A stretch of 62,151 bases of DNA, counting the filler, from Thermodesulfobacteriota bacterium (GTDB lineage: Bacteria > DASVDK01): assembly GCA_036381125.1 (NCBI GenBank). It is 6 parts of 6 records of this genome, joined end to end, with 100 filler letters (N's around TTAATTAATTAA, not from the genome) between each part and the next. Parts side by side here need not be neighbours in the genome. Positions count along the whole stretch, not along the records: positions 27,716 to 42,871 come from DASVDK010000208.1; 5 more parts are not named here. One strand, given 5' to 3'. This document shows positions 2,142 to 42,871 of this stretch, piece after piece. The notes beneath the pieces were generated by a model. The model worked only from the letters and a program-made list of their open reading frames with translations. It was not told the origin of the DNA and did no database searches. How positions within the stretch are numbered: position 1 is the first letter of the stretch; each line of letters opens with the position of its first letter. A program made the position numbers and the translations under genes.

Positions 2142-5348
<3,207 letters not shown>

Positions 5349-9635: not shown

Positions 9636-10388
9636 ATGCGCACGGAGCGGCCCAACGGCCCGCCGGTCACCTCGACCGTCGAGGACTATCTCCAGCTCAT
9701 CTACAAGATGGTGCAGGAGCACCGGCCGGTGCTCGCGTCGCGGCTCGCCGAGCGGCTCGGCGTCTCGCTGCCGACGGTCCTCGGGACCCTCCAGCGGATG
9801 ACCCGGGACGGCCTGGTCGAGAGCGACGAGAAGCGCCAGATCGCCCTCACCGCACGCGGCCTCGGCCTCGCCGAGTCGATGGTCCGCCGGCAGCGCCTCG
9901 CCGAGCGGTTCCTCGTCGACGTGCTCGGTCTCTACTGGGCCGAGGCCAACGTCGAGGCCCACCTCCTGGAGCACGCCATCAGCCCCAAGGTCGAAGCGCG
10001 CCTGAACGCCATGCTCCGGTCGCCCGCGACCTGCCCCCACGGCAACCCCATCCCGGGCAACGGCGCCGAGGCGCCGCGCGACCTCGTCACGGTCGCGTCG
10101 GGCCAGCCCGGCGAGATCTTCGTCGTGGACCGACTGGCCGAGGACGCCGAGGGGGACGGCGAGTTCCTCGAGTGGCTCCAGCGTCACGGCGTCATGCCGG
10201 GCCGCCGGCTGACGGTGGTCGAGCACGAGCGCGTGGCCGGCACCGTGGTGCTCGAAGGGGACCAGGGGCGCGTCACCTTCGGCCTCTCGGCCGCCGAACG
10301 GGTCTACGGCCGGCGCGAGGCGTCCGGACGGGCCGCGGGCGACGGCGCTGCGAGAGGCCGGAACCGGGAGCACGAGAGGCGAGCGTAG
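9636..10388 (+). CDS. DtxR/MntR-family metal-dependent repressor with FeoA/SH3 domain
   Basis: 'TVEDYLQLIY', wHTH, 'RRQRLAERFL', 'EAHLLEHAIS', 'TCPHGNPIP'. Confidence 0.92.
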   Translation: MRTERPNGPPVTSTVEDYLQLIYKMVQEHRPVLASRLAERLGVSLPTVLGTLQRMTRDGLVESDEKRQIALTARGLGLAESMVRRQRLAERFLVDVLGLYWAEANVEAHLLEHAISPKVEARLNAMLRSPATCPHGNPIPGNGAEAPRDLVTVASGQPGEIFVVDRLAEDAEGDGEFLEWLQRHGVMPGRRLTVVEHERVAGTVVLEGDQGRVTFGLSAAERVYGRREASGRAAGDGAARGRNREHERRA

Positions 10389-27715: not shown

Positions 27716-27879
27716 ATTCTGCGCGCCGTCGCTGGGCTGTGCGAGGCACCACCCGCACGGCAACCGTACAACCCTAACCCGAAGAGGAGATCACCCGCCA
27801 CTCCGCACCCCGATGCCGGGGGACCGGGCCGCTCCGTGGTGGAGCGGACACCAACCCGAAACAAGGGAGGACAGGCTCC

Positions 27880-28695
27880 ATGCCATTCCGCACGTTCGTC
27901 ATTGCCGTGATCACCGCGGCGTGGCTCGCACCGGCCTTCGCGACGCACGCGTCGGCCGCCAATCTCGACGTGATGTCCTACAACATCAACTGGGGCGCCC
28001 CGAGCGGCAAACGCCTCGACGCCATCGCCAAGGTGATCGCCTCGAGCGGCGCCGACGTGGCCGGCCTTCAGCAGGTACGCCGGTTCGCGCGCGTCGCGAA
28101 GAAGGGCAACTACGGGTGCGTCGACCAGCCCAGGAAGCTGGTGAGCGCGCTCCAGCGCTACACCGGCGACCGGTGGTACTGGGCGTACGCCGCCAACACG
28201 AGCGCGCGCCAGAGCTCGAAGCACTGCAAGAGCATCACGAGCACGCCGCGCCAGGAGGGCGTCCTCATCGTGAGCCGCTACCCGATCTCCCACGCCGAGG
28301 CGCACAGGCTCCCGTACTCGCGCGGCCTCGCCCGCGCCCTCGTGAACGCGCCGGGCGGCCCGGTCGCCGTCTACACCGTGCACCTCGACTCGGGCTCGAC
28401 GGGCAAGCGAGCCGTCCAGGCGCGGCGCGTGGCCGACATCATCCGCAGGGACCGCACGCCGTCGATCTTCGTCACCGGCGACATGAACGACAAGCCGGGC
28501 AAAGCGCCGCTCAAGGTGCTCCGCGGCGTCGTGAAGGACAGCTGGGCGCAGGTGGGGAAAGGCTCGGGGGCGACGCGCAACGCCCGCATCGACTACGTCC
28601 TCTACCGCGGGCGGGCGAAGCCGCAATCGGCCCGCGTCATCCAGACCTGGGTCTCCGACCACAGGCCGGTCGTCGCCCGGTTCTCGGTCAACTAG
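27880..28695 (+). CDS. Secreted endonuclease/exonuclease/phosphatase (EEP) family protein
   Basis: GGGAGG RBS; signal peptide; 'VMSYNI', 'GLQQV', 'HLD', 'GDMN', 'IDYV', 'SDHRPV'. Confidence 0.88.
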   Translation: MPFRTFVIAVITAAWLAPAFATHASAANLDVMSYNINWGAPSGKRLDAIAKVIASSGADVAGLQQVRRFARVAKKGNYGCVDQPRKLVSALQRYTGDRWYWAYAANTSARQSSKHCKSITSTPRQEGVLIVSRYPISHAEAHRLPYSRGLARALVNAPGGPVAVYTVHLDSGSTGKRAVQARRVADIIRRDRTPSIFVTGDMNDKPGKAPLKVLRGVVKDSWAQVGKGSGATRNARIDYVLYRGRAKPQSARVIQTWVSDHRPVVARFSVN

Positions 28696-28700
28696 GTGGA

Positions 28701-29735
28701 ATGGTCCGGCGACATGGCCGAGCCGCCGGCGCGCTCGCGCTGGCGGCGATCGGCACGCTGATGATGCCCGCGGGCGCCGCCCGCTCCGCGAACCGCGGAC
28801 CGGGCGGCTCTGCGTCCGACACCGCGTCGCTCTGGGTCCAGGCCGCCCGCGGCCGACTTTCGGTCGCGCTCGACGAGGCGCCGCTGCCGGCCGTGCTCGA
28901 CGCGATCCGCGCCGAGACCGGCGTGGCGGTGTCCGTCCACGGGTCGGTCGCGCGCGAGGTGTCCGACCAGTTCCGCGGCCTCACGTTCGAGCGCGCGCTG
29001 CGCCGCCTGCTCCGCCCGTTCAACGTCGCGTTCGTCTACCGGCCGCGGCGCGGCGGGGCGCCGCAGCTCGAGAAGGTCGTCGTCTATCCGGCCGCCGAGG
29101 CCGAGCGGCAGCCGGCGACCACGCGGCCGGCGGCGCCGCCGGCCGAAGGCCCGGGCCGGCCCGTGACCGCGGCCGAGCACGGGCCGGCGCCGTCGGGCCC
29201 GCCGCTGCCGCCCGAGACGGAGGCGCGGCTCGCCGCGCTCGCCCGGCTGGGCCCCTCCGCGCCGGCCGGCGCCGGCGCGGAGCTGGACGCGCTCATCGCC
29301 GACCCCGACCCGGCCGTGCGGCAGCGGGCGCTCGAGGTGGCCGAGGCCACGCAGCTCGCCTCGCCCGACGCGCTGCGCCATGCCGCGCTCGCCGACCCCG
29401 ACCTGCAGGTTCGCTGGGCGGCGCTTGCCGCGCTCGTCGCCACGGCCGGCCGCGAGGCCGCGATCGCCGCGGCCGAGGGGGCGCTGTCGAGTCCGTCGCC
29501 CCAGGAGCGGCTGGCCGCGGTCGAGGCGCTCGGCGAGCAGCTCGGAGGCCGGGCGGGGGAGGAGGCCGCGCGCAGGGCCCTCGCCGATCCCGACCCCGCG
29601 GTGCGCGCCAAGGCGGCCGAGATCGTCGCCATCATCGAGGAAGGCGAGGCGGTGGCGGCCGACGAGGAGGACGACGACGAGGCGGAGGAGCCCGACGACG
29701 GGGCCGACGCGGGCGGCAGGCGGGAAGGGGGCTGA
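28701..29735 (+). CDS. Exported protein with secretin/TonB N-terminal-like domain, HEAT repeats and acidic tail
   Basis: Signal-like N-terminus; 'LSVALDEAPLPAVLDAI...LTFERALRRLL'; repeated 'ADPDPAVR'; tail 'DEEDDDEAEEPDD'. Confidence 0.7.
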   Translation: MVRRHGRAAGALALAAIGTLMMPAGAARSANRGPGGSASDTASLWVQAARGRLSVALDEAPLPAVLDAIRAETGVAVSVHGSVAREVSDQFRGLTFERALRRLLRPFNVAFVYRPRRGGAPQLEKVVVYPAAEAERQPATTRPAAPPAEGPGRPVTAAEHGPAPSGPPLPPETEARLAALARLGPSAPAGAGAELDALIADPDPAVRQRALEVAEATQLASPDALRHAALADPDLQVRWAALAALVATAGREAAIAAAEGALSSPSPQERLAAVEALGEQLGGRAGEEAARRALADPDPAVRAKAAEIVAIIEEGEAVAADEEDDDEAEEPDDGADAGGRREGG

Positions 29736-29747
29736 CGCGGCATCCGA

Positions 29748-29777
29748 TTGACAGCCGACGGGCAGGGTCGGTACCGT
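29748..29777 (+). promoter_or_regulatory. Sigma-70-like promoter of the nitroreductase gene
   Basis: TTGACA-N18-TACCGT. Confidence 0.5.
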
Positions 29778-29846
29778 TCACGCGGCGGCGGCGCCGGCAC
29801 CCGATGCCGCGCGCGCCACGTTCCCTTTCCCCGAAGGAGGCGACGC

Positions 29847-30407
29847 GTGGACGTCCTCGACGCGATCCGGACCCGGCGCAGCATCGCCGTCTACTGTGCC
29901 GACCCGGTCCCGAAGGGGAAGCTGCGCGCCATCCTCGAGGCCGCCACCTGGGCGCCCAACCACCGGCACAACGAGCCCTGGTTCTTCCACGTGGTGGAGG
30001 GCGAGGCGCGCGCCCGACTCGCCGACCGGTTGCTCGAGGCGGCGCGTGCGGACGCGGGCGGCGACAAGGCCCGGGGCAAGGTCCGGACGACGGCCGAGCG
30101 GATCCGCAACACGCCGACCGTCGTCTTCGTCCAGACCTTCGCCGCGGCGACGCCACACGACACGGAGGAGAACTACGCGGCGGCCTGCTGCGCCGTGCAG
30201 AACCTGCTCCTGGCGGCACACGCCGAAGGGCTCGGGGCGATCTGGCGCACCGGGGTGCCGTGCGAGCACCCGGTCGTCAAGGCGTTCCTCGGGGTCCCCG
30301 GCGACGCCAAGCTCGTGGCCGCCGTCTTCCTCGGCTTCCCTGCGGCGCCCGCACCACCCCAGACCCGGCGCCCGCTCGAGGAGCGGGTCCGCTTCCTCGC
30401 CGAATGA
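29847..30407 (+). CDS. Nitroreductase family protein
   Basis: AAGGAGG RBS; 'DAIRTRRSI', 'APNHRHNEPWFF', 'AVQNLLLAAHAEGLGAIW'. Confidence 0.92.
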   Translation: MDVLDAIRTRRSIAVYCADPVPKGKLRAILEAATWAPNHRHNEPWFFHVVEGEARARLADRLLEAARADAGGDKARGKVRTTAERIRNTPTVVFVQTFAAATPHDTEENYAAACCAVQNLLLAAHAEGLGAIWRTGVPCEHPVVKAFLGVPGDAKLVAAVFLGFPAAPAPPQTRRPLEERVRFLAE

Positions 30408-30593
30408 CCCGCCGGCGCACCCTGCCGGGCCTCCTGGCCGCGACGTTGATCGCCGGACCGGCGGCCGCGAACGGCGTCCTCGCCTTCATCGTGAAGAGCT
30501 TCACCGGCGGACCACCTTCGTCATCGACCCCGGCGGCCGCGGCGCTGCGCGCGTGCGGCGGCCGGTGACCGCTCCACTCGACAGCTCGGGAAC

Positions 30594-30630
30594 AAAAAAA
30601 GCCCCGACCCGGCGTACGCCGGGTCGGGGC
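30594..30630 (-). terminator. Rho-independent terminator
   Basis: Perfect 30-bp palindrome GCCCCGACCCGGCGTACGCCGGGTCGGGGC followed by T7 on the minus strand. Confidence 0.85.
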
Positions 30631-30755
30631 GCGTCGGGGCCGGCCCTGAGGCCGGCATGTGGCCGAAACGAAGGATCTCGCCGTAGGAAGAGTCCCTCGG
30701 GCCCCCCGCGGAGCGAGTGCGGGGACATACGGACCTCGGGCTGCTCGGCGAGCAG
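30594..30755 (-). ncRNA. Candidate orphan structured sRNA of about 160 nt
   Basis: Bounded by a TTGACA-N18-TAGTAT promoter and an intrinsic terminator; several hairpins; no credible ORF contained. Confidence 0.6.
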
Positions 30756-30760
30756 GGTCC

Positions 30761-30790
30761 ATACTACGGGCAGCCGGAATGGGCTGTCAA
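30761..30790 (-). promoter_or_regulatory. Sigma-70 promoter of the candidate sRNA
   Basis: Minus-strand TTGACA (30790-30785), 18-nt spacer, TAGTAT (30766-30761). Confidence 0.7.
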
Positions 30791-31049
30791 CGCGCGTCGC
30801 GAAACTAAATTATGGCGAACTGACGATAACTTATGCGGTGTCAAGGGCTTTTGACCGCGCACCGACGACATTTTTCGCGAGGGCCGGGCGCTCGCGCCCC
30901 CGGCGGCCCCGCCCGTCGCCGCCGGGGCTGCCGGCCCACAGGGGCAAAAGCCGGGCCCTGAGGCCCCATTTTCGGCACCGCCTTCGGCCGCCGCGCAGCA
31001 ATCGGGTCGCCTGATACGGCAGGCGAGCGTCCACTGACTAAGAATTTGC

Positions 31050-31078
31050 TTGCCTGCCGAAACGACCGGGTGTAGCTT
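31050..31078 (+). promoter_or_regulatory. Sigma-70-like promoter of the response regulator
   Basis: TTGCCT-N17-TAGCTT, 9 nt before the ATG. Confidence 0.55.
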
Positions 31079-31087
31079 CCCGACGCT

Positions 31088-31738
31088 ATGGAAACCCACA
31101 TCCTCGTCGTCGACGACGACCCGAGCATTCGAAGCTTCCTGAAGACCGCGCTCGAGCGTACGCCGGGCCAGCACGTGGAGGTGGCCTCCGACGCCGCGAC
31201 CGCGTTGACCATGGTGCGCCACGGTCAATACGGTGTCGTCCTGGTCGACCTCCGGCTGCCGGGTCAGGGCGGGGCCGAGCTGCTCCGGACGCTCAAGCAG
31301 GAGCGGCCCGATCTCCCGGTCATCGCCATCACGGGGGCGGCGACGACGGAGGAGGCGCTGCAGGCGATCCGCCTGGGCGCCGTCGACGTCATCCTCAAGC
31401 CGATCTCCCTGCCGCAGCTCAACGAGGCGATGCAGAAGGGGCTCGCCCGGCGCCAGGCACCGGCCGCGGTGGTCGACACCGCGCTGCCGCTGCTCGCCAT
31501 GCGCGAGAAGGCGGTGCGCCAGCTCGAGCGGGACTACCTGATCCGCGTGCTGACGGAGGAGCGGGGTCACCTCGGGGCGACTGCGCGTCGTGCCGGCGTG
31601 AACGCGAAGACGCTCTACGAGAAGATGCGCGCGTACGGCCTCCGCAAGGAGGACTTCCGGCGCCGGGGCGGCTTCGCCCGCGCCGCGACCGCCGCCTCCT
31701 CGTCCTCGTCCCCGTCGCCCGCCCCCTCGAACGCCTAG
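31088..31738 (+). CDS. Response regulator: REC domain + Fis-type HTH, no AAA+ domain
   Basis: 'ILVVDDD', 'DLRLPG', 'ILKP'; NtrC-like tail 'LERDYL...GHLGATARRAGVNAKTLYEKM'. Confidence 0.85.
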   Translation: METHILVVDDDPSIRSFLKTALERTPGQHVEVASDAATALTMVRHGQYGVVLVDLRLPGQGGAELLRTLKQERPDLPVIAITGAATTEEALQAIRLGAVDVILKPISLPQLNEAMQKGLARRQAPAAVVDTALPLLAMREKAVRQLERDYLIRVLTEERGHLGATARRAGVNAKTLYEKMRAYGLRKEDFRRRGGFARAATAASSSSSPSPAPSNA

Positions 31739-31852
31739 CGGGCAGAGCGCGGCGGCCGGCGAGAATACGCCGGCTCGCGGCGACCTGCCGACCGGCGCCG
31801 GTGGCCCGACCGATGGGGAGTGGTGCGGCCCTTGCGCGAGGCGGCGCGGCCG

Positions 31853-32980
31853 CTACCGCGCGAGGAGCCGCGTCCGCAAGGCCTCCGTGCGCTCCGGCTG
31901 CGCGGGGGCGTCCTCGAGCGCCAGGGCCGCCCGTCGAGGCGGCCGGCCTGCCAGCTCCACGACGCCCGAGCCGGGCCGTCTCCCCTCGGAGGCGGCCGCG
32001 AGGGTGATCCGGTGCGCGAGGCGAGCGGGCATGCGCGCCAGCACCTGGGCGGCGAGGGGCGAGCCGCCCTGCAGGCCGGCGTCGGCGAGGGAGACCACGG
32101 GGGCGAGCGCCGTGCGGGGCGACGCCTCGAGGAGGCCGAGCAGCGGCGGCACGAGGTACGCCTCCGCCGTGTCGAGCAGGAGCAGGAGCGGCATGGCCGG
32201 AGCCGGCCGACTCTCGATCGCCACCCGCAGGTCGGCCAGCACGAGCGCGGCGAGCGAGGCTGCGAGCGCCTCGTCCGCCACCACCCCGAGCCCGACGTAG
32301 AGCAGCCCTCCGCCCTCCACGACGGCGCCCAGGTCGATCTCGTTCGATTCGGCCATGAGCGGCGCCGCCCCGTCGTTCATCAGCAGACGATCGAGTTCCT
32401 GCGCGAGACGCCGACGCCAGGTGGCGGGGCCGACCACCGGGAGGCCGGCCTGCGCGCGCGCGAGGCGGCGCCGGTCCGACGGCTCCGACTCGGCGAGCCG
32501 GCGACGCACCGCGGCCAGGGTGAGCGGGCCGCCCTCGTCGAGCAGGCCGGCGACCAGCGCCTCGGCGCCGCGCCGCGTGGCGCCGTCCACGGCCGACCCG
32601 GCGCGGCGCGCGGGGGGTGCGCCGAGGTGCAGGAGCAGGCTGGCGAGCGGCGCGAGCCCCTTGCCGGCGAGCGGGTTGTACCGATGGCTGCGCGACGGCG
32701 TCGACGGCTCGTAGAGCCGCACGACGTCGAGCCGGTCGGCCTGCTCCGCGGCGGCGAGGAAGGCGCCGAGGGCGCGGCGCGAGGGCCGGCCCTCCAGGAA
32801 GACCGCTCCGCCGCCGCGCGCGACCTGCCGGGCGAGCAGCGCGAGGAGCACGCTCCGCTTGCCGCCGCCCGGTGGACCGCCGACGGCGATCCCCTCGAGG
32901 AGCTCCCCCTCGGTGATCACGATCGGAGCGCCGTCATCCTCCGACCGACCGATCGACAGCGCCGGCGCGCTCCGGTCCAT
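31853..32980 (-). CDS. Degenerate TraD/VirD4-like (type IV coupling protein) P-loop protein
   Basis: 'GPPGGGKRS' Walker A-like, 'RSHRYNPL', 'EIDLGAVV', Walker B-like 'LLLLLDTAEAY'. Confidence 0.55.
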   Translation of the reverse strand: MDRSAPALSIGRSEDDGAPIVITEGELLEGIAVGGPPGGGKRSVLLALLARQVARGGGAVFLEGRPSRRALGAFLAAAEQADRLDVVRLYEPSTPSRSHRYNPLAGKGLAPLASLLLHLGAPPARRAGSAVDGATRRGAEALVAGLLDEGGPLTLAAVRRRLAESEPSDRRRLARAQAGLPVVGPATWRRRLAQELDRLLMNDGAAPLMAESNEIDLGAVVEGGGLLYVGLGVVADEALAASLAALVLADLRVAIESRPAPAMPLLLLLDTAEAYLVPPLLGLLEASPRTALAPVVSLADAGLQGGSPLAAQVLARMPARLAHRITLAAASEGRRPGSGVVELAGRPPRRAALALEDAPAQPERTEALRTRLLAR

Positions 32981-33053
32981 GGCCGCACACCCTACCCCTG
33001 GGCAGGGGGGTTGGCAAGCCAAAAGCCGGGAACGCCTCTGCTATGCTCGTCCC

Positions 33054-33956
33054 ATGTCCGACCCGGTCGTCCCGCCTGCGGCGCCGCCCGACCCCGCCGA
33101 TCTCGCCCGGCGCGTCGCGCTCGCGCGCCGGCTCGCCGGCGAGGCGGCACACGTGGCGGTGCGCCGGTGGCGTGCCGGCCGCGTCGTCGCGGAGCTCAAG
33201 GCGGATCAGACGCCGGTCACCGCGGTCGACCGCGAGATCAACGACCTCCTCGTCCGCCGGCTCGCCGAGGCCGACCCCGGCACGCCGATCGTCGGCGAGG
33301 AGGGGAGCCTGCGCGGCGCGCCGGGCGGCTGGTGCTGGTTCGTCGACCCGATCGACGGCACCGCCGACTTCGTGGCCGGGACCGGGCAGTGGATGGTCCT
33401 CCTCGGCGCGACCTTCGGCGGCCGCCCGGTGCTCGGCGTCGCGGCGCGGCCGCTGCCGCCCGCCGACCAGGGCGCGCCGAGGATCTACTGGGCCTCGGCC
33501 GGCGGCGGAGCGTGGCAGGAGCCGCTCGCCGGCGTCGAGGGCAGCCTGGCCGAGGGGGACACCGGCCCCTCGGCCCTGCACGTGAGCGAAGTCCGCACGC
33601 TCGAGGCGGCGCGCCTGCTCGTCGGCAAGAGCCGGCATCGCGAGGGGTTCCTCGAGCGGCTTGCCGCGTTGCCCCACCGCACCCTGCTGCAGGTCGGCAG
33701 CCTCGGGCTCAAGGCGGTCCTCGTCGCGCAGGGGAGCGCCGACGCCTACGCGTCGGCGAGCCTGCAGACCTCGGTGTGGGACCTGGTCGGCCCCTCGGTG
33801 ATCGTCGAGGAAGCCGGCGGTCGGATGACCGACCTGTCGGGCGCGGCGCTCACCTTCGAGACCGACGATCCGACCTGGCGGCGGGGCCTCATCGTCTCGA
33901 ACGGTCGCGTCCACGACGCGCTCGTCGCCGCCTTCGAGGAGCCGTCGGCCCGTTGA
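33054..33956 (+). CDS. Inositol monophosphatase/CysQ-family phosphatase
   Basis: 'PVTAVD', 'GEE', 'WFVDPIDGT', 'VGSLGLK', 'WDL'. Confidence 0.9.
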   Translation: MSDPVVPPAAPPDPADLARRVALARRLAGEAAHVAVRRWRAGRVVAELKADQTPVTAVDREINDLLVRRLAEADPGTPIVGEEGSLRGAPGGWCWFVDPIDGTADFVAGTGQWMVLLGATFGGRPVLGVAARPLPPADQGAPRIYWASAGGGAWQEPLAGVEGSLAEGDTGPSALHVSEVRTLEAARLLVGKSRHREGFLERLAALPHRTLLQVGSLGLKAVLVAQGSADAYASASLQTSVWDLVGPSVIVEEAGGRMTDLSGAALTFETDDPTWRRGLIVSNGRVHDALVAAFEEPSAR

Positions 33957-33988
33957 GACACGACCCGCCGCGTGGTACCCTCGCGCGC

Positions 33989-35209
33989 ATGTCGCGCGCC
34001 GAGGAGTCAGGTCGTTCGACCGCCGACGAGGCATCCCTCGAAGAGGCACCTGGGTCGGACCGGGCCGGCGATCCGCACTCCGTCGGCCTGGTCGCGACGC
34101 ATCACCTCACGCTCGACGGCCCGTTCCACTGCCAGTCCGGCGACGTCCTCCCCTCGGTCACGGTGGCCTACGAGACCTACGGCACGCTCTCGCCCGCCCG
34201 CGACAACGCCATCCTCGTGGCGCACGCGCTGTCGGGCGGGTCGCACGCCGCCGGCTACTCGAGCCCGGCCGACCGGAAGCCGGGGTGGTGGGACGTCATG
34301 ATCGGCCCGGGCAAGCCGTTCGACACGTCGCGTTACTTCGTCGTCTGCACGAACGTGCTCGGCTCCTGCTACGGCACGACCGGTCCGTCGAGCATCGACC
34401 CGACGACCGGCCGGCCCTACGGGCTGCGTTTCCCGCTCGTGACGATCCGCGACATGGTCGACGTCCAGGCTCGCGTCGTCTCCGCGCTCGGCATCGAGCG
34501 CCTCCTCTGCGCGGCGGGCGGATCGATGGGCGGGATGCAGGCGCTCCAGTGGCTCGCCTCGTACCCGAGCCGCGTCGACGCCGTCATCGTCTCGGCCTCC
34601 TGCCTGCGGCACACGGCCATGCAGATCGCCTTCAACGAGGTCGGCCGGCGCGCGATCACCTCCGACCCGAACTGGAACGACGGCGACTACTACGGGGGGC
34701 CGGCCCCCGGCAAGGGGCTCGCGGTGGCCCGCATGCTCGGCCACATCACGTACCTGTCGAACGAGGCCATGGAGAAGCGCTTCGGGCGCCGGCAGCGGGG
34801 GCCGCGCGAGAAGTTCCGTCCGACGTTCGAGGTCGAGCACTACCTCGATCACCAGGGCCAGTCGTTCGTGAATCGCTTCGACCCGAACTCCTACCTCTAC
34901 ATCACCAACGCGCTCGACACGTTCGACTGGCACGAGGAGATCGCCGCGGTCGACCGCGCGCTGCGGAGCGTCCTCGAGGGCAAGCGCGCCCTCGTCCTGT
35001 CCTTCACCTCCGACTGGCTCTACCCGACCGAGCAGTCGTACGAGGTGGCCACGGCCCTCTCCGTACGCGGGATGCAGGTGGAGCGGCACGAGGTGCGCTC
35101 CGCCTACGGCCACGACGCCTTCCTGCTGGAGGCCGAGGAGCAGGGGCCGATCGTCCGCGACTTCCTCGGCGCGGCGCTGGCCGCGCGCCGCCGCGTCCCC
35201 GGCAACTAG
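33989..35209 (+). CDS. metX: Homoserine O-acetyltransferase
   Basis: 'VAYETYGTL', 'HALSG', 'GGSMGGMQ', 'SDWLYP', 'YGHDAFL'. Confidence 0.93.
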   Translation: MSRAEESGRSTADEASLEEAPGSDRAGDPHSVGLVATHHLTLDGPFHCQSGDVLPSVTVAYETYGTLSPARDNAILVAHALSGGSHAAGYSSPADRKPGWWDVMIGPGKPFDTSRYFVVCTNVLGSCYGTTGPSSIDPTTGRPYGLRFPLVTIRDMVDVQARVVSALGIERLLCAAGGSMGGMQALQWLASYPSRVDAVIVSASCLRHTAMQIAFNEVGRRAITSDPNWNDGDYYGGPAPGKGLAVARMLGHITYLSNEAMEKRFGRRQRGPREKFRPTFEVEHYLDHQGQSFVNRFDPNSYLYITNALDTFDWHEEIAAVDRALRSVLEGKRALVLSFTSDWLYPTEQSYEVATALSVRGMQVERHEVRSAYGHDAFLLEAEEQGPIVRDFLGAALAARRRVPGN

Positions 35210-35281
35210 GACCGGTCCCGGTGGGGTGAGGCGCGGCGGGAGGCCCCTGCCGGCGCGGTGCCCGAGGCCGTCGGACGCGGC

Positions 35282-36097
35282 CTAGCCCGCCGCGGCAGGG
35301 CCCAGCGCGGCGCGCGCCACCATGTAGAGCGTCGCGCCGACGAGCAGCGCGTTGTAGACAGCCCGCAGCCGCGCCCGCGGCAGCCAGACCACGAGTCGCG
35401 CGCCCGCCTGCGCGCCGACGACGCCCGCCGCCACGAGCGGCCCCACGAGGGCCGGGTCGACGCCGAGCAGGGTCCAGTGCGTCGCGATCCCGGCGACCGC
35501 GGCGGCGAGGATCGAGAGCAGCGACGTCCCGATGGCGATCGGCAGGGGGATGCCGAGCAGGACGACCAGCAGCGGCACGAGGAGGAAGCCGCCGCCGATC
35601 CCGAGCAGGCCGGTCACGACCCCGATGCCGGCGCCGACGAGGAGCGCCCCGACCAGCGAGTACGAGTAGACGTACCGCTCCTCCCCGGCGTCCTGCACCC
35701 GCGTGACGGCGAAGCGGCCCGCGCGCGCGGCCGGGCTGCGACGGGCGGCGGGCCGCGGCAGGTTGAAGAGGACCAGGGCGAGCGCGGTCACCGCGGCGAA
35801 GAGCCCGCCGAGCACCCGGTCCGGGAGGCTGGCGCTCACGGCGGAGCCGAGCGCCGCCGTCGCGGCCGACGCCGCCATGAGGGGCAGGCCGAGCCGCCAG
35901 TCGGCCGTGCCCTGGCGCAGGTGTCGCAGGGCGCCGGAGACCGAGGTGGCCAGGACGAAGACGAGGCTGGCGCCGACGATCACGTGGAGCGGCACGGCGA
36001 GGGCCGAGAGGAGCGGCACCAGGATGAAGCCGCCCCCCACGCCGAGCAGACCCGAAGCGATGCCGGTGAAGAGCCCGATGGCGAGGAGCGTGAGCAT
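35282..36097 (-). CDS. TauE/SafE-family sulfite exporter
   Basis: Duplicated 'GLLGVGGGFILVP' / 'GLLGIGGGFLLVP' motifs; multi-TM. Confidence 0.9.
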   Translation of the reverse strand: MLTLLAIGLFTGIASGLLGVGGGFILVPLLSALAVPLHVIVGASLVFVLATSVSGALRHLRQGTADWRLGLPLMAASAATAALGSAVSASLPDRVLGGLFAAVTALALVLFNLPRPAARRSPAARAGRFAVTRVQDAGEERYVYSYSLVGALLVGAGIGVVTGLLGIGGGFLLVPLLVVLLGIPLPIAIGTSLLSILAAAVAGIATHWTLLGVDPALVGPLVAAGVVGAQAGARLVVWLPRARLRAVYNALLVGATLYMVARAALGPAAAG

Positions 36098-36103
36098 GGC
36101 GCG

Positions 36104-37050
36104 TCAGCGGGCGGCCTCGCGACGCATCGCGACCAGCGCGTCGGCGGTCGCCTCGGCCCGTGCGGCCCAGCCGTCCAGGACGGCGGCGGCGCCCCGGTGC
36201 TCGGCGGCGCGGGCGGCGTAGTACGCGCCGGCCCCGCGCGCCTCGGCCTCGAGCCGCTCGAGGAGCGCCGGGAGCTGGCCGAAGCGTGCGGCGCCCTCGA
36301 AGAGGACCTCGATCATCCGGGGCCGTTCGAGGAGGGCGAGGGGAAGGGCGAGTCGACCCGCCAGGCGGTGGAGCGTCTCGCGCGAGAGAAAGAGGCCGGC
36401 CACAAGCGGGGTCGCGAGGTATCGGCCGACCCCTTCCAGATCGGCGTCGCGCAGGGAGGCGCGCGCGGGGGCCGCCGTCTCGGCCGCGCCGGCCTCCGCG
36501 GCGACCGGCAGGCTCGCGGCGCCGAGCCGCGCGAGGTCGCCGAGCACGACGTCGGCCGTCACGTCGGCGAGGACCCGGTAGAACGGGTGCCGCGCGTCGC
36601 GCCCTACCGCCTCGGCGAAGGGGGCGACGAAGGCGGCCAGGTGCGTCTCGAGGAAGCGGCGCTGGACGGCGGCCGGCGCGCCGTCGATCAGGGCCGCCGC
36701 GAACCAGAGTTCGGCGCCGACGTGGTCGGCCGCCCCCGGCCGGGGGACGCCCGAGACCTCGAAGCCGGCCGCCCGGTAGGCCGCCTCCACCGCCACGCTC
36801 GGCGCGGCCCCGAGCATCACCGACTCGTCGAGGAAGACCGACTCGTACGGGTAGACGTTCAGCAGGAAGAGGCGCGCGTACTCCGCGCGCAGGCGGGCGG
36901 CCGCCCCCCCGTCCGTCTCGCCGGCGAGCGCCTCGCCGAAGGCGGGCCACTCGCGCAGGCGCCCGACGAGCGCGGCGTCCGGCTCGGCGAGGAAGAGCCG
37001 CCCGAGGAGGCGGTAGAGCGCCGAGCGGTCGGCGCCGTCCTCACCCCCGC

Positions 37051-37054
<4 letters not shown>
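36104..37054 (-). CDS. TorD/DmsD-family molybdoenzyme chaperone with C-terminal extension
   Basis: 'LYRLLGRLFLAEPD', 'EYARLF', 'PYESVF', 'ADHVGAEL', 'FLETHL'; GTGA overlap with the upstream gene. Confidence 0.85.
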
Positions 37055-40029
<2,975 letters not shown>

Positions 40030-40047
40030 GGATCGAAGCTCCTTCGG

Positions 40048-41658
40048 CTAGCTCATCGGGACGGACTGACCTGCAGCCACCCACCGGTCCTCGAAGGCGA
40101 GCAGGCCGATCAGCGCGAGCACGCTCGCGGCGCCGGCCGCGATGCCCGACGGCAGCGCCCCGACCGCCCCGAGGGCGAGCGCGAGGAGCGGCGCCGCGAC
40201 GCCGACGCCGGCGGCAACGAGCCAGAAGCGGCCCGCCAGCCGCCCGGCGCGCAGCGCGTCGGCAGCGAGCGCGACGTGGGTGTTGGCGTGCGGCGTGTAG
40301 AGCTCCGCGGCCACGAACCCCGCGTGCGCGACGAGGCCGACGCCGAGGGCGCCGGCCAGGAAGACCAGCTCGGACGGCCGCGCCGCGCCGGCCAGCGCCA
40401 CGAGCAGGAGCGCCGCCGCGCCGGCGAGCACCGCCTGGGCGAGGAGGTGGGGGGCGAGGAGCGGGCTCTGCCAGAAGTCGCGTCCCTCGGCCTGGCCGAA
40501 GAGGAACGCCGTGTAGACGGCGGCCAGCACGGCGAGGATCGCCCCCGGCCACCTGAGCCACCGGGCGGCCCCGTCGAGGAGCCCCACGTCGAGCAGGCCT
40601 GCCGCGAGCGACACGGCCGACACCGCGCCGAACGCCACGAGGACGTAGCCCCCCTTCACCAGCCAGGAGCTCCAGTTGCCCTTCGTGAGCAGGTAGTAGA
40701 AGCGCTCCGGGCGCTTGAGGTCGGCCACGAGGAGCCCCGCCGTGATGAGCGTGAAGACGAGCGCGAGGGCCGGGGCGGCCGTGCCGAAGAGGGCGCTCCG
40801 CTCGCCGATGCCGACGCCGAGCGCCGCCGCCATGAGGAGGAAGGCTCCCGCCGCGATCGACTTGGTCCAGAGGTAGGCCGAGACGAGGCCGCCCCAGGGG
40901 GTCTCGTGGGCCACGTTGTAGTTCACCTGGCCGCCCTCGGTGAGGTAGCCGGCCGCGACCGACTCGCCCGGCCCCCCGCCGCGGCTGCCTCCGCTCGCGC
41001 GTACCAGCGCCGTGAGGTCGATCGCCTGCCCGTGCCCGCCGTGCGACGTGTCGCGGTGCTGCGACCACATGCCGCCCTGCGGGTCGGCGAACATCGCCGG
41101 CTCGAGGGCGGCCGTCTCGGCCCCCACGTACCAGAGCTTGGGCTGCGTGCCCTGCTCCGGCCGGCGGACCGCGACGTTCTCCCGCCCGAGCGTGCGGGCG
41201 ATGCGGCTCGCCGGGTCGTCGAGGTCGCCCGAGATGATCGCCTGGGTCGGGCAGACCAGCACGCAGGCCGGCTCGAGCCCGACCTCCACCCGGTGCGCGC
41301 AGTAGTGGCACTTGGCGGCGGTGTTGGTGGCCGGGTCGATGTAGATCGCGTCGTAGGGGCAGGCCTGCATGCAGGCCTTGCAGCCGATGCAGCGCCGGTT
41401 GTCGAAGTCGACGATGCCGTCCTTGCGGCGGTAGAGCGCCGAGGTGGGGCAGATCGTGGTGCAGGGGGAGTTCGCGCAGTGGTTGCAGCGCTGGACCAGG
41501 AAGTGGCGGCGGGTGTTCGGATAGGTCCCTTTCTCGACCGACTTCACCCACGTGCGGAAGACGCCCACCGGCACCTGATTCTCCGACTTGCAGGCGACCG
41601 TACAGGCGTGACACCCGATGCACCTGCGCTGGTCGATGACGAAGCCGTACGTCGGCAC
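40048..41658 (-). CDS. Fused NrfC-like 4x[4Fe-4S] and NrfD/PsrC membrane anchor subunit
   Basis: Four ferredoxin Cys groups (CIGCHAC, CNHC..PC, CIGCKAC, CHYC..PAC) followed by NrfD-type 'PWG..VSAYLW', 'ADLKRPERF', 'SSWL'. Confidence 0.9.
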   Translation of the reverse strand: MPTYGFVIDQRRCIGCHACTVACKSENQVPVGVFRTWVKSVEKGTYPNTRRHFLVQRCNHCANSPCTTICPTSALYRRKDGIVDFDNRRCIGCKACMQACPYDAIYIDPATNTAAKCHYCAHRVEVGLEPACVLVCPTQAIISGDLDDPASRIARTLGRENVAVRRPEQGTQPKLWYVGAETAALEPAMFADPQGGMWSQHRDTSHGGHGQAIDLTALVRASGGSRGGGPGESVAAGYLTEGGQVNYNVAHETPWGGLVSAYLWTKSIAAGAFLLMAAALGVGIGERSALFGTAAPALALVFTLITAGLLVADLKRPERFYYLLTKGNWSSWLVKGGYVLVAFGAVSAVSLAAGLLDVGLLDGAARWLRWPGAILAVLAAVYTAFLFGQAEGRDFWQSPLLAPHLLAQAVLAGAAALLLVALAGAARPSELVFLAGALGVGLVAHAGFVAAELYTPHANTHVALAADALRAGRLAGRFWLVAAGVGVAAPLLALALGAVGALPSGIAAGAASVLALIGLLAFEDRWVAAGQSVPMS

Positions 41659-41700
41659 GTCGCCCTCCCCGGGGGAAGCCCGTCACACACCGCTGCCGAC

Positions 41701-41755
41701 AATCTACGCGACCGTCGGGTATCAGGCAAATAGCAAGTTGCGCGGAAGGGTATCA
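41701..41755 (-). promoter_or_regulatory. Promoter of the molybdoenzyme operon with direct repeats
   Basis: Minus-strand TTGCCT-N17-TAGATT; GGGTATCA repeated at 41717-41724 and 41748-41755. Confidence 0.6.
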
Positions 41756-41918
41756 AGGATCGTTTATGCGCGGCCGGGCCGAACTCCCCAACCGCAGTCG
41801 GTCGGAGCGAGTCACGGACGCGATGCGGAAGCCGGAAGGCCTGCCGGTCGTGACACGACGAGCCGCCCTTCTGCCGCCGGCGATCGCGGCGGCCGCATCG
41901 ACCCGCCGGCCTCGCGTC

Positions 41919-42871
41919 CTACGGCGGCCGGCCGGCCGAGGCCCAACTCGGTTCGAACCGAGTTCGCACGGGCCCCGGGGCCCGGCACGCCGTGGCATAG
42001 ACGACCGCCGCCTCCCGCACCTGCGACGCGCCCCAGGGGCCGAACATCCGTTCCGCCTCGTACCCGTTGTGCGCCCGGCAGCACAGCTCGATGTTCTCGA
42101 CCGTCGCCGCGCCGCCCGCCGCGTACGGCCGCACGTGGTGGAACTCGAGAAAGCCCCGCTCGGCGCACCGCCGCCCCGTCCGGCGGCTCACGAAGGCGCA
42201 CCGCCCGCCGTCGCGCGCCCACACCGCCCGCCTGACCGCTGCCGGCACGTGCCGCGACCCCGGCCTCGGCGGCGTCCCCGCCCGCGGCCGACCGGTCGCG
42301 CCGACCTTCTGCTTGAGCAGCGTCTCGACGAGGACGGTCAGGGCGCGGTCGAGGACCTGCGCGACGTCGCCGTCGGGGATCTGGTGGCGCAGGAGATCCT
42401 GCGCCTGCCGCAGCTTCGTGTACGTCTCGGTGCTGGCGGTGAACTGGACCCGGTAGCGCTCGGGCGCCAGCGGCGCCACGACCGGCGGCCGCGCGGGCGG
42501 TGGTGGGGCGACGGCCGGCGCCGGTGGTGAGGCCGAGGGCTCCGGGTACGGGGCGGGCGGGCTGACCGGCGGCGCCTCGGCCGGAGGCGGCGCCGCCGCG
42601 GAGAGGACCGGGGCCGGTCCGAGTGCGCTGGCACGCGCCGCCTCGGCCAGTGACGGGCGCGCGGCCGGTGCCGTCCGCGGCACCGGGAGCCGGCGGATCG
42701 AGGGAGGTACCGGGGGCAGGGGACGCAACGCCGCCACCAGCGCCTCGACCTCCCGCCGGCTCCTGTGGCGGGCCTGGTCGAGGAGCGCCAGGTGGTTCTC
42801 GGCCGTGAGGTGCGGTGCGAGGAGCGTCACGGTCGTGAGCGTCACCGACCCGTCGGCGAGGTGCTCGAGAA
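41919..42871 (-). CDS. HNH endonuclease (DUF222-like multicopy family), 5' truncated
   Basis: 'SRHVPAAVRRAVWARDGGRC...RC...LEFHHVRP...GG..TVENIELCCRAHN'; Pro/Ala linker; lies at a contig end. Confidence 0.88.
41921..41964. repeat. HNH 3'-end motif containing the perfect palindrome AACTCGGTTCGAACCGAGTT
   Basis: 20-bp perfect palindrome at 41945-41964; second copy at 22065-22108. Confidence 0.8.

Follow-up and report, generated by a model that had tools for sequence, protein, structure and literature searches.

The stretch of DNA analysed here (the window; 62,151 nucleotides (nt), filler included) joins six parts of the genome of a Thermodesulfobacteriota bacterium (assembly GCA_036381125.1). 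This source genome, denoted G000, comprises 4.33 Mb in 382 contigs and has a GC content of 73%. Window positions 27716-42871 represent one 15-kb contig (DASVDK010000208.1), whose minus strand carries a compact promoter-to-terminator unit at 30790-30594. Sequence comparison makes us confident that the unit is a genuine, conserved gene that stands alone and encodes a non-coding RNA (ncRNA). Taken as a whole, it is best explained as the gene for a stand-alone, trans-acting small RNA (sRNA) that would regulate by base pairing with the assistance of Hfq, a reading to which we assign a probability of roughly 0.55.

According to the mechanism proposed, an ncRNA of approximately 162 nt would be made from a strong σ70-type promoter and ended by a strong intrinsic terminator. 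The sRNA would pair in trans, with the help of Hfq, and block translation initiation. Its seed, nt 96-108, would occlude the Shine-Dalgarno (SD) sequence, the spacer and the AUG codon of a gene encoding a DUF1232 membrane protein. Transcription may be set by a divergently encoded regulator with a receiver (REC) domain and a Fis-type helix-turn-helix (HTH) domain, acting via an AT-rich block upstream of the -35 hexamer.

A discrete promoter-to-terminator unit

The unit was compared with its counterpart in G001, a congener of G000; in the collection searched, the phylum consists of these two genomes. RNA positions are counted from window position 30755 (nt 1), and RNA position n corresponds to window position 30756-n. 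The predicted elements of the unit, including hairpins H1 to H4, are as follows.

30796-30850, minus strand: conserved upstream block with an AT-rich core, CCATAATTTAGTTTC (approximately 30801-30815), and a second TTGACA at 30844-30839; 49 of 55 positions identical in G001
30761-30790, minus strand: σ70-type promoter TTGACA-N18-TAGTAT, detected by promoter scan; hexamers invariant in G001
30594-30755, minus strand: predicted sRNA transcript of approximately 162 nt, bounded by promoter and terminator; 157 of 162 positions identical in G001
30741-30755, minus strand: H1 (nt 1-15), the 5′-terminal hairpin CUGCUC/GAGCAG; one change in G001, from U-A to U-G
30726-30737, minus strand: nt 19-30 (GAGGUCCGUAUG) of the linker nt 16-31, resembling a translation start region (SD-N5-AUG); AUG replaced by AUA in G001
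30704-30724, minus strand: H2 (nt 32-52), CCCCGC/GCGGGG; invariant in G001
30661-30703, minus strand: H3 (nt 53-95), a long hairpin with CU-rich tracts as its stem strands, present in both fold models; invariant in G001
30648-30660, minus strand: candidate seed (nt 96-108; ACAUGCCGGCCUC), antisense to GAGG-CCGGC-AUG-U; 13-nt perfect match to the DUF1232 start region
30639-30656, minus strand: H4 (nt 100-117), the 7-bp GC hairpin GCCGGCC/GGCCGGC, overlapping the candidate seed; three changes in G001, all in the loop
30594-30630, minus strand: intrinsic terminator with a 13-bp stem, a 4-nt loop and U7; 37 of 37 positions identical in G001

An earlier reading of this DNA, made from the sequence alone (the sequence-only reading), had described TTGACA-N18-TAGTAT on the minus strand, and the promoter is found at that place (30790-30761), with TTGACA at 30790-30785, an 18-nt spacer, and TAGTAT at 30766-30761. 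It matches the σ70 consensus at 10 of 12 positions and is the sole σ70-type match in the segment 28000-34000, in which shuffled sequence yields 0.0 matches. The search was extended to the entire genome with a threshold of at least 10 of 12 matching positions, including at least 5 of 6 in the -35 hexamer as well as A2 and T6 in the -10 hexamer. This gave 101 matches in G000 versus 1 in the reversed genome. A mask based on GC content at third codon positions (GC3) left approximately 27% of G000 as non-coding, and 82 of the 101 matches are located in that fraction. Given the excess over the reversed genome and the mostly non-coding location of the matches, promoters of this type are therefore really used in G000. 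In G001 the sRNA promoter is identical at 38 of 40 positions, and both changes (30776 and 30771) fall within the spacer. We infer that the 5′ end of the RNA lies at 30753-30755, about 7 nt past the -10 hexamer.

Among the 20 bases upstream of the -35 hexamer 12 are A or T, which places this promoter sixth of the 101 (P = 0.0017, random genome windows). The conserved AT-rich block suggests an UP-like element or a site bound by a regulator or another protein. No conserved σ54 motif was found in the upstream region: the nearest match has two mismatches and lies approximately 190 nt upstream, in the non-conserved spacer, and σ54-like matches occur at chance level overall (30 versus 34.4 expected).

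Two minor observations concern the promoters and the spacer. The -10 hexamer TAGAGT recurs about 12 times among the 101 promoters, mostly together with TTGACA and an 18-nt spacer, which could reflect co-regulation of a set or the presence of a repeated element. Within the variable spacer (30851-30985), a GGGCC/GGCCC hairpin at 30953-30966 (minus strand) is retained in G001, where its loop reads AUAU in place of UCAG; the surrounding spacer is only 67% identical.

The palindrome and U7 tract noted in the sequence-only reading form a stem-loop at 30630-30601 (nt 126-155), with a 13-bp stem that includes 12 G-C pairs and a 4-nt loop, followed by T7 at 30600-30594. Under the loose definition used by the scanner, this is the one terminator reported in 28000-34000, and shuffles of the segment give 1.1. 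With the definition applied genome-wide (a perfect stem of at least 8 bp followed by a T-run), 10 terminators were found in the 4.33 Mb of G000 versus 0 in the reversed genome. The sRNA terminator is the longest of the 10 and is the strongest intrinsic terminator of the genome. At least two other strong terminators of G000 close tRNA genes that also begin at a TTGACA promoter; the sRNA unit is therefore built in the same way as the stable-RNA genes of this genome. As a separate observation, canonical intrinsic terminators are very rare in G000, and several of the perfect-stem ones close tRNA genes or other small units, not protein genes.

Predicted RNA structure

The fold energy of the RNA is -95.9 kcal/mol (z = -4.47), and 0 of 200 shuffled sequences fold as well. 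Both the minimum-energy and the constrained fold are multi-branched. The three hairpins named in the sequence-only reading are present (30755-30741, 30724-30704 and 30656-30639) and correspond to H1, H2 and H4. The loop of H2 (ACUCGCUCC, 9 nt, 30710-30718) has an unpaired probability of at least 0.9. In the minimum-energy fold nt 19-30 pairs with nt 96-108.

A CU-rich segment had also been described, with the suggestion that it could pair with SD sequences. The segment exists, but it is mostly base-paired inside H3, where every model has CUCUUCCU and UCCUUCG paired to GAGA and GAGGGA. The complements of its 7-mers are not notably enriched at start sites, and the proposed role of this tract as an SD-directed seed was abandoned.

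Conservation and distribution

A BLAST search showed that G001 carries the unit with 93% identity over 292 nt, and a covariance model of the sRNA gives 196.6 bits for the G000 copy and 190.2 bits for that of G001. The two RNAs differ at 5 of 162 positions (3.1%). This is lower than the divergence at four-fold sites of the two flanking genes, of which 31 of 234 differ (13.2%; Fisher p = 5e-4), and lower than that of the adjacent spacer, in which 45 of 136 aligned columns differ (33%, i.e. 67% identity; p = 1e-12 versus the RNA). The flanking genes themselves, encoding the REC-Fis regulator and a nitroreductase, are 94.9% and 92.7% identical, respectively. One of the five changes in the RNA is located in H1 (U-A to U-G), one in the linker and three in the loop of H4, and in the local-hairpin model 96 of 96 cells remain paired across both genomes. 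In the minimum-energy model the long helix 15-31/96-113 drops 3 of its 16 pairs in G001 without compensation. On this comparative evidence, the sRNA unit is under purifying selection.

The same figures bear on the possibility that the unit is a non-functional relic, i.e. a leftover promoter and terminator conserved only through the closeness of the two genomes. The overall divergence of G000 and G001 is indeed only 6.3% (14,813 aligned, mostly coding bases), 5 changes in 162 positions are not far below this mostly coding average, and a neighbouring gene of G000 has undergone deletions. However, the divergence of the RNA is 4 times below that of the four-fold sites and 10 times below that of the adjacent spacer, the changes avoid the stems, and G000 and G001 both retain intact promoter hexamers and an unaltered terminator (all 37 positions). 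Moreover, the sRNA is retained in an identical layout beside an intact neighbour gene (G001) and a decayed one (G000). A relic is, in our view, an improbable explanation.

The distribution of the sRNA is narrow. A BLAST search of 41 genomes gave no matches beyond G000, G001 and 31 nt in a further genome (G040). With the covariance model, 151 genomes were screened and only G000 and G001 were recovered; three weak matches of 22-26.5 bits, with per-genome E values of 0.01-0.055, are at about chance level. A core-motif scan of 185,579 species genomes gave one contig, which coincides with that of G001, and a scan of viral contigs for the sRNA gave 0 matches. A metagenome scan with the regulator protein yielded 593 pattern matches and 175 relatives, of which the best 80 were examined. 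In these 80, only the HTH part (approximately 50-57% identity) or the receiver (31-33%) was covered and no orthologue was found; the RNA model found nothing in the same 80 loci (best score 14.2 bits, E 0.42).

Part of the stretch was present in 20 of 22 sequencing runs, which were DNA runs from several habitats; the genus is present in runs from soil, sludge and mangrove. Contigs from 4 DNA runs of 4 studies are low-coverage fragments of the same genus and add no diversity; one record is G001-like, and another run holds a 151-nt contig with 1 difference. The sRNA is single-copy in G000 and no structural paralogue was found in that genome, the next match to the covariance model scoring 18.6 bits (E 0.55).

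Hfq and a candidate target

G000 encodes Hfq (PF17209, 89.7 bits, contig C379). A hairpin followed by U7 is the usual Hfq handle, and the 13-bp stem with U7 agrees with the Rho-independent terminator and U-tail (approximately 6 or more) by which Hfq-dependent sRNAs are recognized. The favoured reading is an Hfq-assisted base-pairing regulator because the hfq gene is present and the RNA has a 3′ end of this type. Judging from its sequence, the sRNA is probably Hfq-dependent, and we put its predicted function as a base-pairing regulatory RNA at slightly better than even odds.

The candidate seed, nt 96-108 (CAUGCCGGCCUC), is the exact antisense of an SD sequence, a spacer of 5 nt and a start codon. 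When 3268 start regions were compared with this segment, the longest perfect match extended over 13 nt and was that of the DUF1232 gene on contig C27 (start at plus-strand position 5154). This gene encodes 127 amino acids (aa) and is the second of a SHOCT/DUF1232 pair, located 16 nt behind the SHOCT-domain gene. The 13-mer complementary to nt 96-108 is found in G000 only in the sRNA gene and at the DUF1232 start site. In the G001 sRNA, U107 (30649) is replaced by C, and A is replaced by G at the orthologous DUF1232 start, by which all 13 Watson-Crick pairs are maintained. The G-variant occurs 0 times in G000. G001 holds only the G-variant, with copies in the sRNA gene, at the DUF1232 start and, once, within an ORF (open reading frame) of 413 codons. 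Net pairing is stronger for cognate than for swapped partners (-3.1 versus -0.2 and -7.5 versus -3.7 kcal/mol). A full-text search found no literature linking DUF1232 with a small RNA.

Several observations weigh against this target and against the wider reading built upon it. The compensatory change of U107 and A is a single event, with a probability of approximately 0.09-0.2 of arising by chance, given that two orthologous start sites were tested. Transitions from A/T to G/C occur at a rate of 4.6% per site (175/3815), reaching approximately 10% at neutral sites. A second candidate site, of 12 nt (C121), shows no compensation in G001, and a third (C273) has no orthologue there. For the longest complementary runs, start regions and gene interiors show no difference in distribution. 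In a duplex scan with the whole RNA body, the means for the 3268 start regions and 2854 gene-interior windows were -18.7 and -19.0, respectively, a comparison judged uninformative at 73% GC. The string GAGGCCGGCATG can also be read as E-A-G-M, a series of common codons, and of its 13 copies several are intragenic, and CCGGC is only marginally the commonest spacer (6 of the 258 translation initiation regions with GAGG-N5-start). Opening of the seed costs 12.8-16.5 kcal/mol, and the net binding is weak. Within the RNA, 0 pairs change on both sides, in a comparison of two genomes only. Finally, the link to the divergent regulator is one of adjacency, and a scan of six other ORFs on the contig revealed no kinase. 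With these points taken into account, the DUF1232 start site is put forward tentatively; that it is the true target of nt 96-108 appears possible, though somewhat unlikely.

The loop of H2, which contains CUCC, was considered as a different seed and rejected. Its complement GGAGCGA is present in 40 start regions versus 10.3 in controls, but among the 64 GGAGNNN words it takes only 17th place, and all matches are shorter than 11 nt, which points to a generic SD effect.

A more elaborate model can also be drawn up. The start mimic (nt 19-30, GAGG-N5-AUG) could pair with its own antisense (nt 96-108, CAU-N5-CCUC), and a trigger would then release this arm, which would silence the SHOCT/DUF1232 operon. 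Candidate triggers are Hfq, 30S docking on the mimic, or a signal that arrives via the neighbouring redox-type regulator. The changes found in G001 weaken the nt 19-30/96-108 helix that would mask the seed, and we regard such a self-masked anti-start-site switch as a long shot. If true, it would be the first riboregulator and the first regulatory circuit defined for this phylum.

Known RNA classes and alternative explanations

The sequence-only reading had not recognized the RNA as a tRNA, transfer-messenger RNA, signal recognition particle (SRP) RNA or 6S RNA, and the searches agree. None of the 4227 models of Rfam 15 matched at its gathering score across the whole window, and ARAGORN reported 0 genes in 30300-31100. 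When E values up to 10 were admitted, 13 sub-threshold Rfam matches appeared in 30400-31100, the best being NsiR1 (26.4 bits versus a threshold of 39). The alignments to NsiR1, ctRNA_pGA1, Scr3202 and Atu_C7 rest largely on the terminator hairpin. The SRP RNA of G000 is encoded elsewhere (C177, 74.8 bits). As was also claimed earlier, no GC3-supported minus-strand gene is located downstream on the rest of the contig; the RNA is therefore not a riboswitch or attenuating leader. The DNA downstream of the sRNA is antisense to the convergent genes in both G000 and G001.

A different function for the RNA would be the binding or sequestering of a protein, for example as a functional analogue of 6S RNA or as a protein decoy. 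A length of approximately 160 nt, a strong promoter and the z-score of the fold would suit an abundant, structured RNA, and in size, promoter strength and degree of structure the sRNA resembles 6S RNA. The 6S model (RF00013) has no match in the whole of G000 at E up to 10, which leaves room for an analogue; this absence is nevertheless weak evidence because the model detects only 7 of 14 control genomes. A non-pairing RNA would also give the weak target statistics described above. On the other hand, there is no 6S RNA among the 13 sub-threshold matches of the region. The predicted structure of the RNA is multi-branched, not a rod with a central bubble, and the helix that would close such a rod is not conserved, as it drops 3 of 16 pairs in G001 uncompensated. 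As for a decoy, no genes for CsrA and ProQ were found in G000. A protein-binding role is considered quite improbable.

The convergent genes raise the possibility that the unit acts in cis on the nitroreductase/peroxiredoxin operon, by interference, by read-through antisense RNA or, in a variant, in the manner of a type I antitoxin. The layout is convergent, the terminator lies 25 nt from the peroxiredoxin stop codon in both genomes, and no plus-strand T-run follows the terminator hairpin, so the operon transcript may enter the sRNA gene. Yet there is no overlap between the sRNA and the convergent ORF, and little read-through is expected from the strongest terminator. The ORF does not encode a toxin-like peptide but is what is left of a peroxiredoxin gene of 170 codons; with this and the 25-nt gap, a type I antitoxin RNA was rejected. 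The sRNA is nearly unchanged in G000, where the peroxiredoxin gene has decayed, and pure interference would not constrain the internal 125 nt so strongly. Action in cis would thus be about as improbable as the binding of a protein.

Three minus-strand ORFs overlap the unit, and none has a stop codon before the terminator. The ORF from 30762 was rejected, as its ATG sits within the -10 box. That the transcript is the mRNA of a small protein read from 30728 or 30658 is very improbable and largely refuted: GAGG-N5-AUG at nt 19-30 does share the geometry of 258 called G000 starts, and ORFs of 75 and 45 codons begin inside the unit, but G001 has AUA in place of the AUG at 30728 and has lost the frame from 30658 through a 1-nt loop deletion, and both frames pass through the terminator without a stop. 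Translation of an internal ORF, which the sequence-only reading had named as an observation that would count against it, is not borne out, as the ORFs do not survive the comparison with G001. As far as can be judged from sequence, the earlier description of a stand-alone regulatory RNA holds for a unit that is discrete, single-copy, apparently under purifying selection and without a conserved ORF.

Relation to known regulatory systems

OxyS, SgrS and RyhB of enterobacteria are examples of trans-encoded, Hfq-dependent sRNAs that act by occluding the ribosome-binding site. The sRNA described here resembles Hfq-dependent sRNAs in having its own promoter, a length within 50-250 nt, several hairpins, a Rho-independent terminator, a U-tail of at least 6 and an hfq gene in the same genome, as well as a segment complementary to the SD sequence and start codon of another gene. 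Unlike OxyS, SgrS and RyhB, it has no sequence or structure relation to any described family, and Hfq binding is in this case predicted. It further differs from Hfq-dependent sRNAs in its candidate seed, which lies partly within a GC hairpin that is costly to open.

Some sRNA genes are located beside the gene of their own transcription factor, as in the pairs OxyS/OxyR, GcvB/GcvA, SgrS/SgrR and Qrr1/LuxO. Like these, the sRNA gene is found next to a regulator gene: it is divergent from a response-regulator gene and has a conserved block upstream of its promoter. In contrast to such pairs, its near-consensus σ70 promoter may need no activator, and the link to the regulator is positional. No binding motif for the regulator was identified upstream of the sRNA. 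Control of the sRNA by the divergent REC/Fis-HTH regulator is suggested by position and must be regarded as doubtful.

The nearest contextual parallel in print appears to be Pxr, which we treat as a parallel and not as a homologue. The pxr gene of Myxococcus xanthus is described as lying downstream of nla19, with a σ54 promoter and an RNA of 108 nt with three stem-loops, and as having a recent origin within Cystobacterineae (PMC5568312). The parallel consists in the location of the sRNA between a gene for a REC/Fis-HTH regulator and a gene of the NAD(P)H nitroreductase family. Our sRNA differs from Pxr in being divergent, σ70-driven and 162 nt long, with five hairpins. None of the 13 sub-threshold Rfam matches in 30400-31100 is named Pxr.

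An sRNA gene with a seed/target pair that can be tested by mutation would provide an entry to post-transcriptional control in a phylum of two genomes. How genes are regulated in this lineage has, to our knowledge, not been described. The unit may also serve as an anchor for annotating promoter-to-terminator units in GC-rich uncultured bacteria. No current concept is challenged by these results, because orphan, lineage-specific sRNAs of such design are expected in most bacteria.

Genomic neighbourhood

Three plus-strand genes or gene remnants flank the unit.

31088-31738, plus strand: response regulator gene encoding 216 aa, with REC and Fis-type HTH domains (Pfam Response_reg, 1e-28; HTH_8, 1.3e-8)
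29748-30407, plus strand: nitroreductase-family gene, upstream of the peroxiredoxin remnant (Pfam Nitroreductase, 5.4e-31)
30404-30568, plus strand: 54-codon remnant of an AhpC/TSA peroxiredoxin gene, convergent with the sRNA gene; identified by comparison with G001

The regulator gene is divergent from the sRNA gene, as first reported, and lies 330 nt away from it. Its product had been called unusual, which is an overstatement: the combination of REC and HTH_8 is the architecture of ActR/PrrA/RegA, although the protein remains below the cut-off of that family (NF033791; 56.2 bits versus 250, with only the receiver domain aligned) and below all other NCBIfam cut-offs. Inspection of 31040-31090 (plus strand) by eye revealed no SD sequence at the 5′ end of this gene, which may be leaderless or nearly so. 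A TTGCCT-N17-TAGCTT sequence ends approximately 9 nt before the ATG of the regulator, in a stretch that is 90% identical in G001.

The ORF at 30404-30568 had been described as small and hydrophobic. Its convergent orientation stands, but it is not an independent small gene; it is what deletions have left of a peroxiredoxin gene, which G001 retains at full length (170 codons; L002:1783-2295, minus strand; Pfam AhpC-TSA, E = 4.8e-37). Approximately 350 nt of this gene are deleted in G000. The G001 gene has an in-frame TGA at the position of the peroxidatic Cys (..KSFTGG-TGA-AQEL..), with a stable hairpin after the TGA, and its product is a candidate selenoprotein, i.e. a selenocysteine peroxiredoxin. 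This protein is below the PrxU cut-off. SelA is present in G000 (493.7 bits), and no tRNA-Sec is included among the 53 tRNAs that ARAGORN reports in that genome. As judged from these gene assignments, the neighbourhood has a redox flavour.

Two further units of G000, neither of which has an Rfam match at E up to 0.01, were noticed in the course of the terminator analysis. On the minus strand of contig C111 (approximately 4570-4800), a unit of about 193 nt begins with TTGACA-N17-GAGCAT and ends with a 10-bp terminator. It was rejected as a 6S RNA or a sibling of the sRNA, since it opens with a leaderless, Cys-rich ORF of 39 codons (..CACPCCCG..). A gene begins approximately 40 nt past the terminator, and the ORF may encode a leader peptide or else a small protein related to metals or Cys. 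On the plus strand of contig C169 (approximately 9850-9945), the CU-rich tract CCUUUCAUCCUCCUCCCC directly precedes a 10-bp terminator, 257 nt past the nearest upstream gene end; it may belong to an anti-SD-type sRNA or to an element of a 3′ untranslated region.

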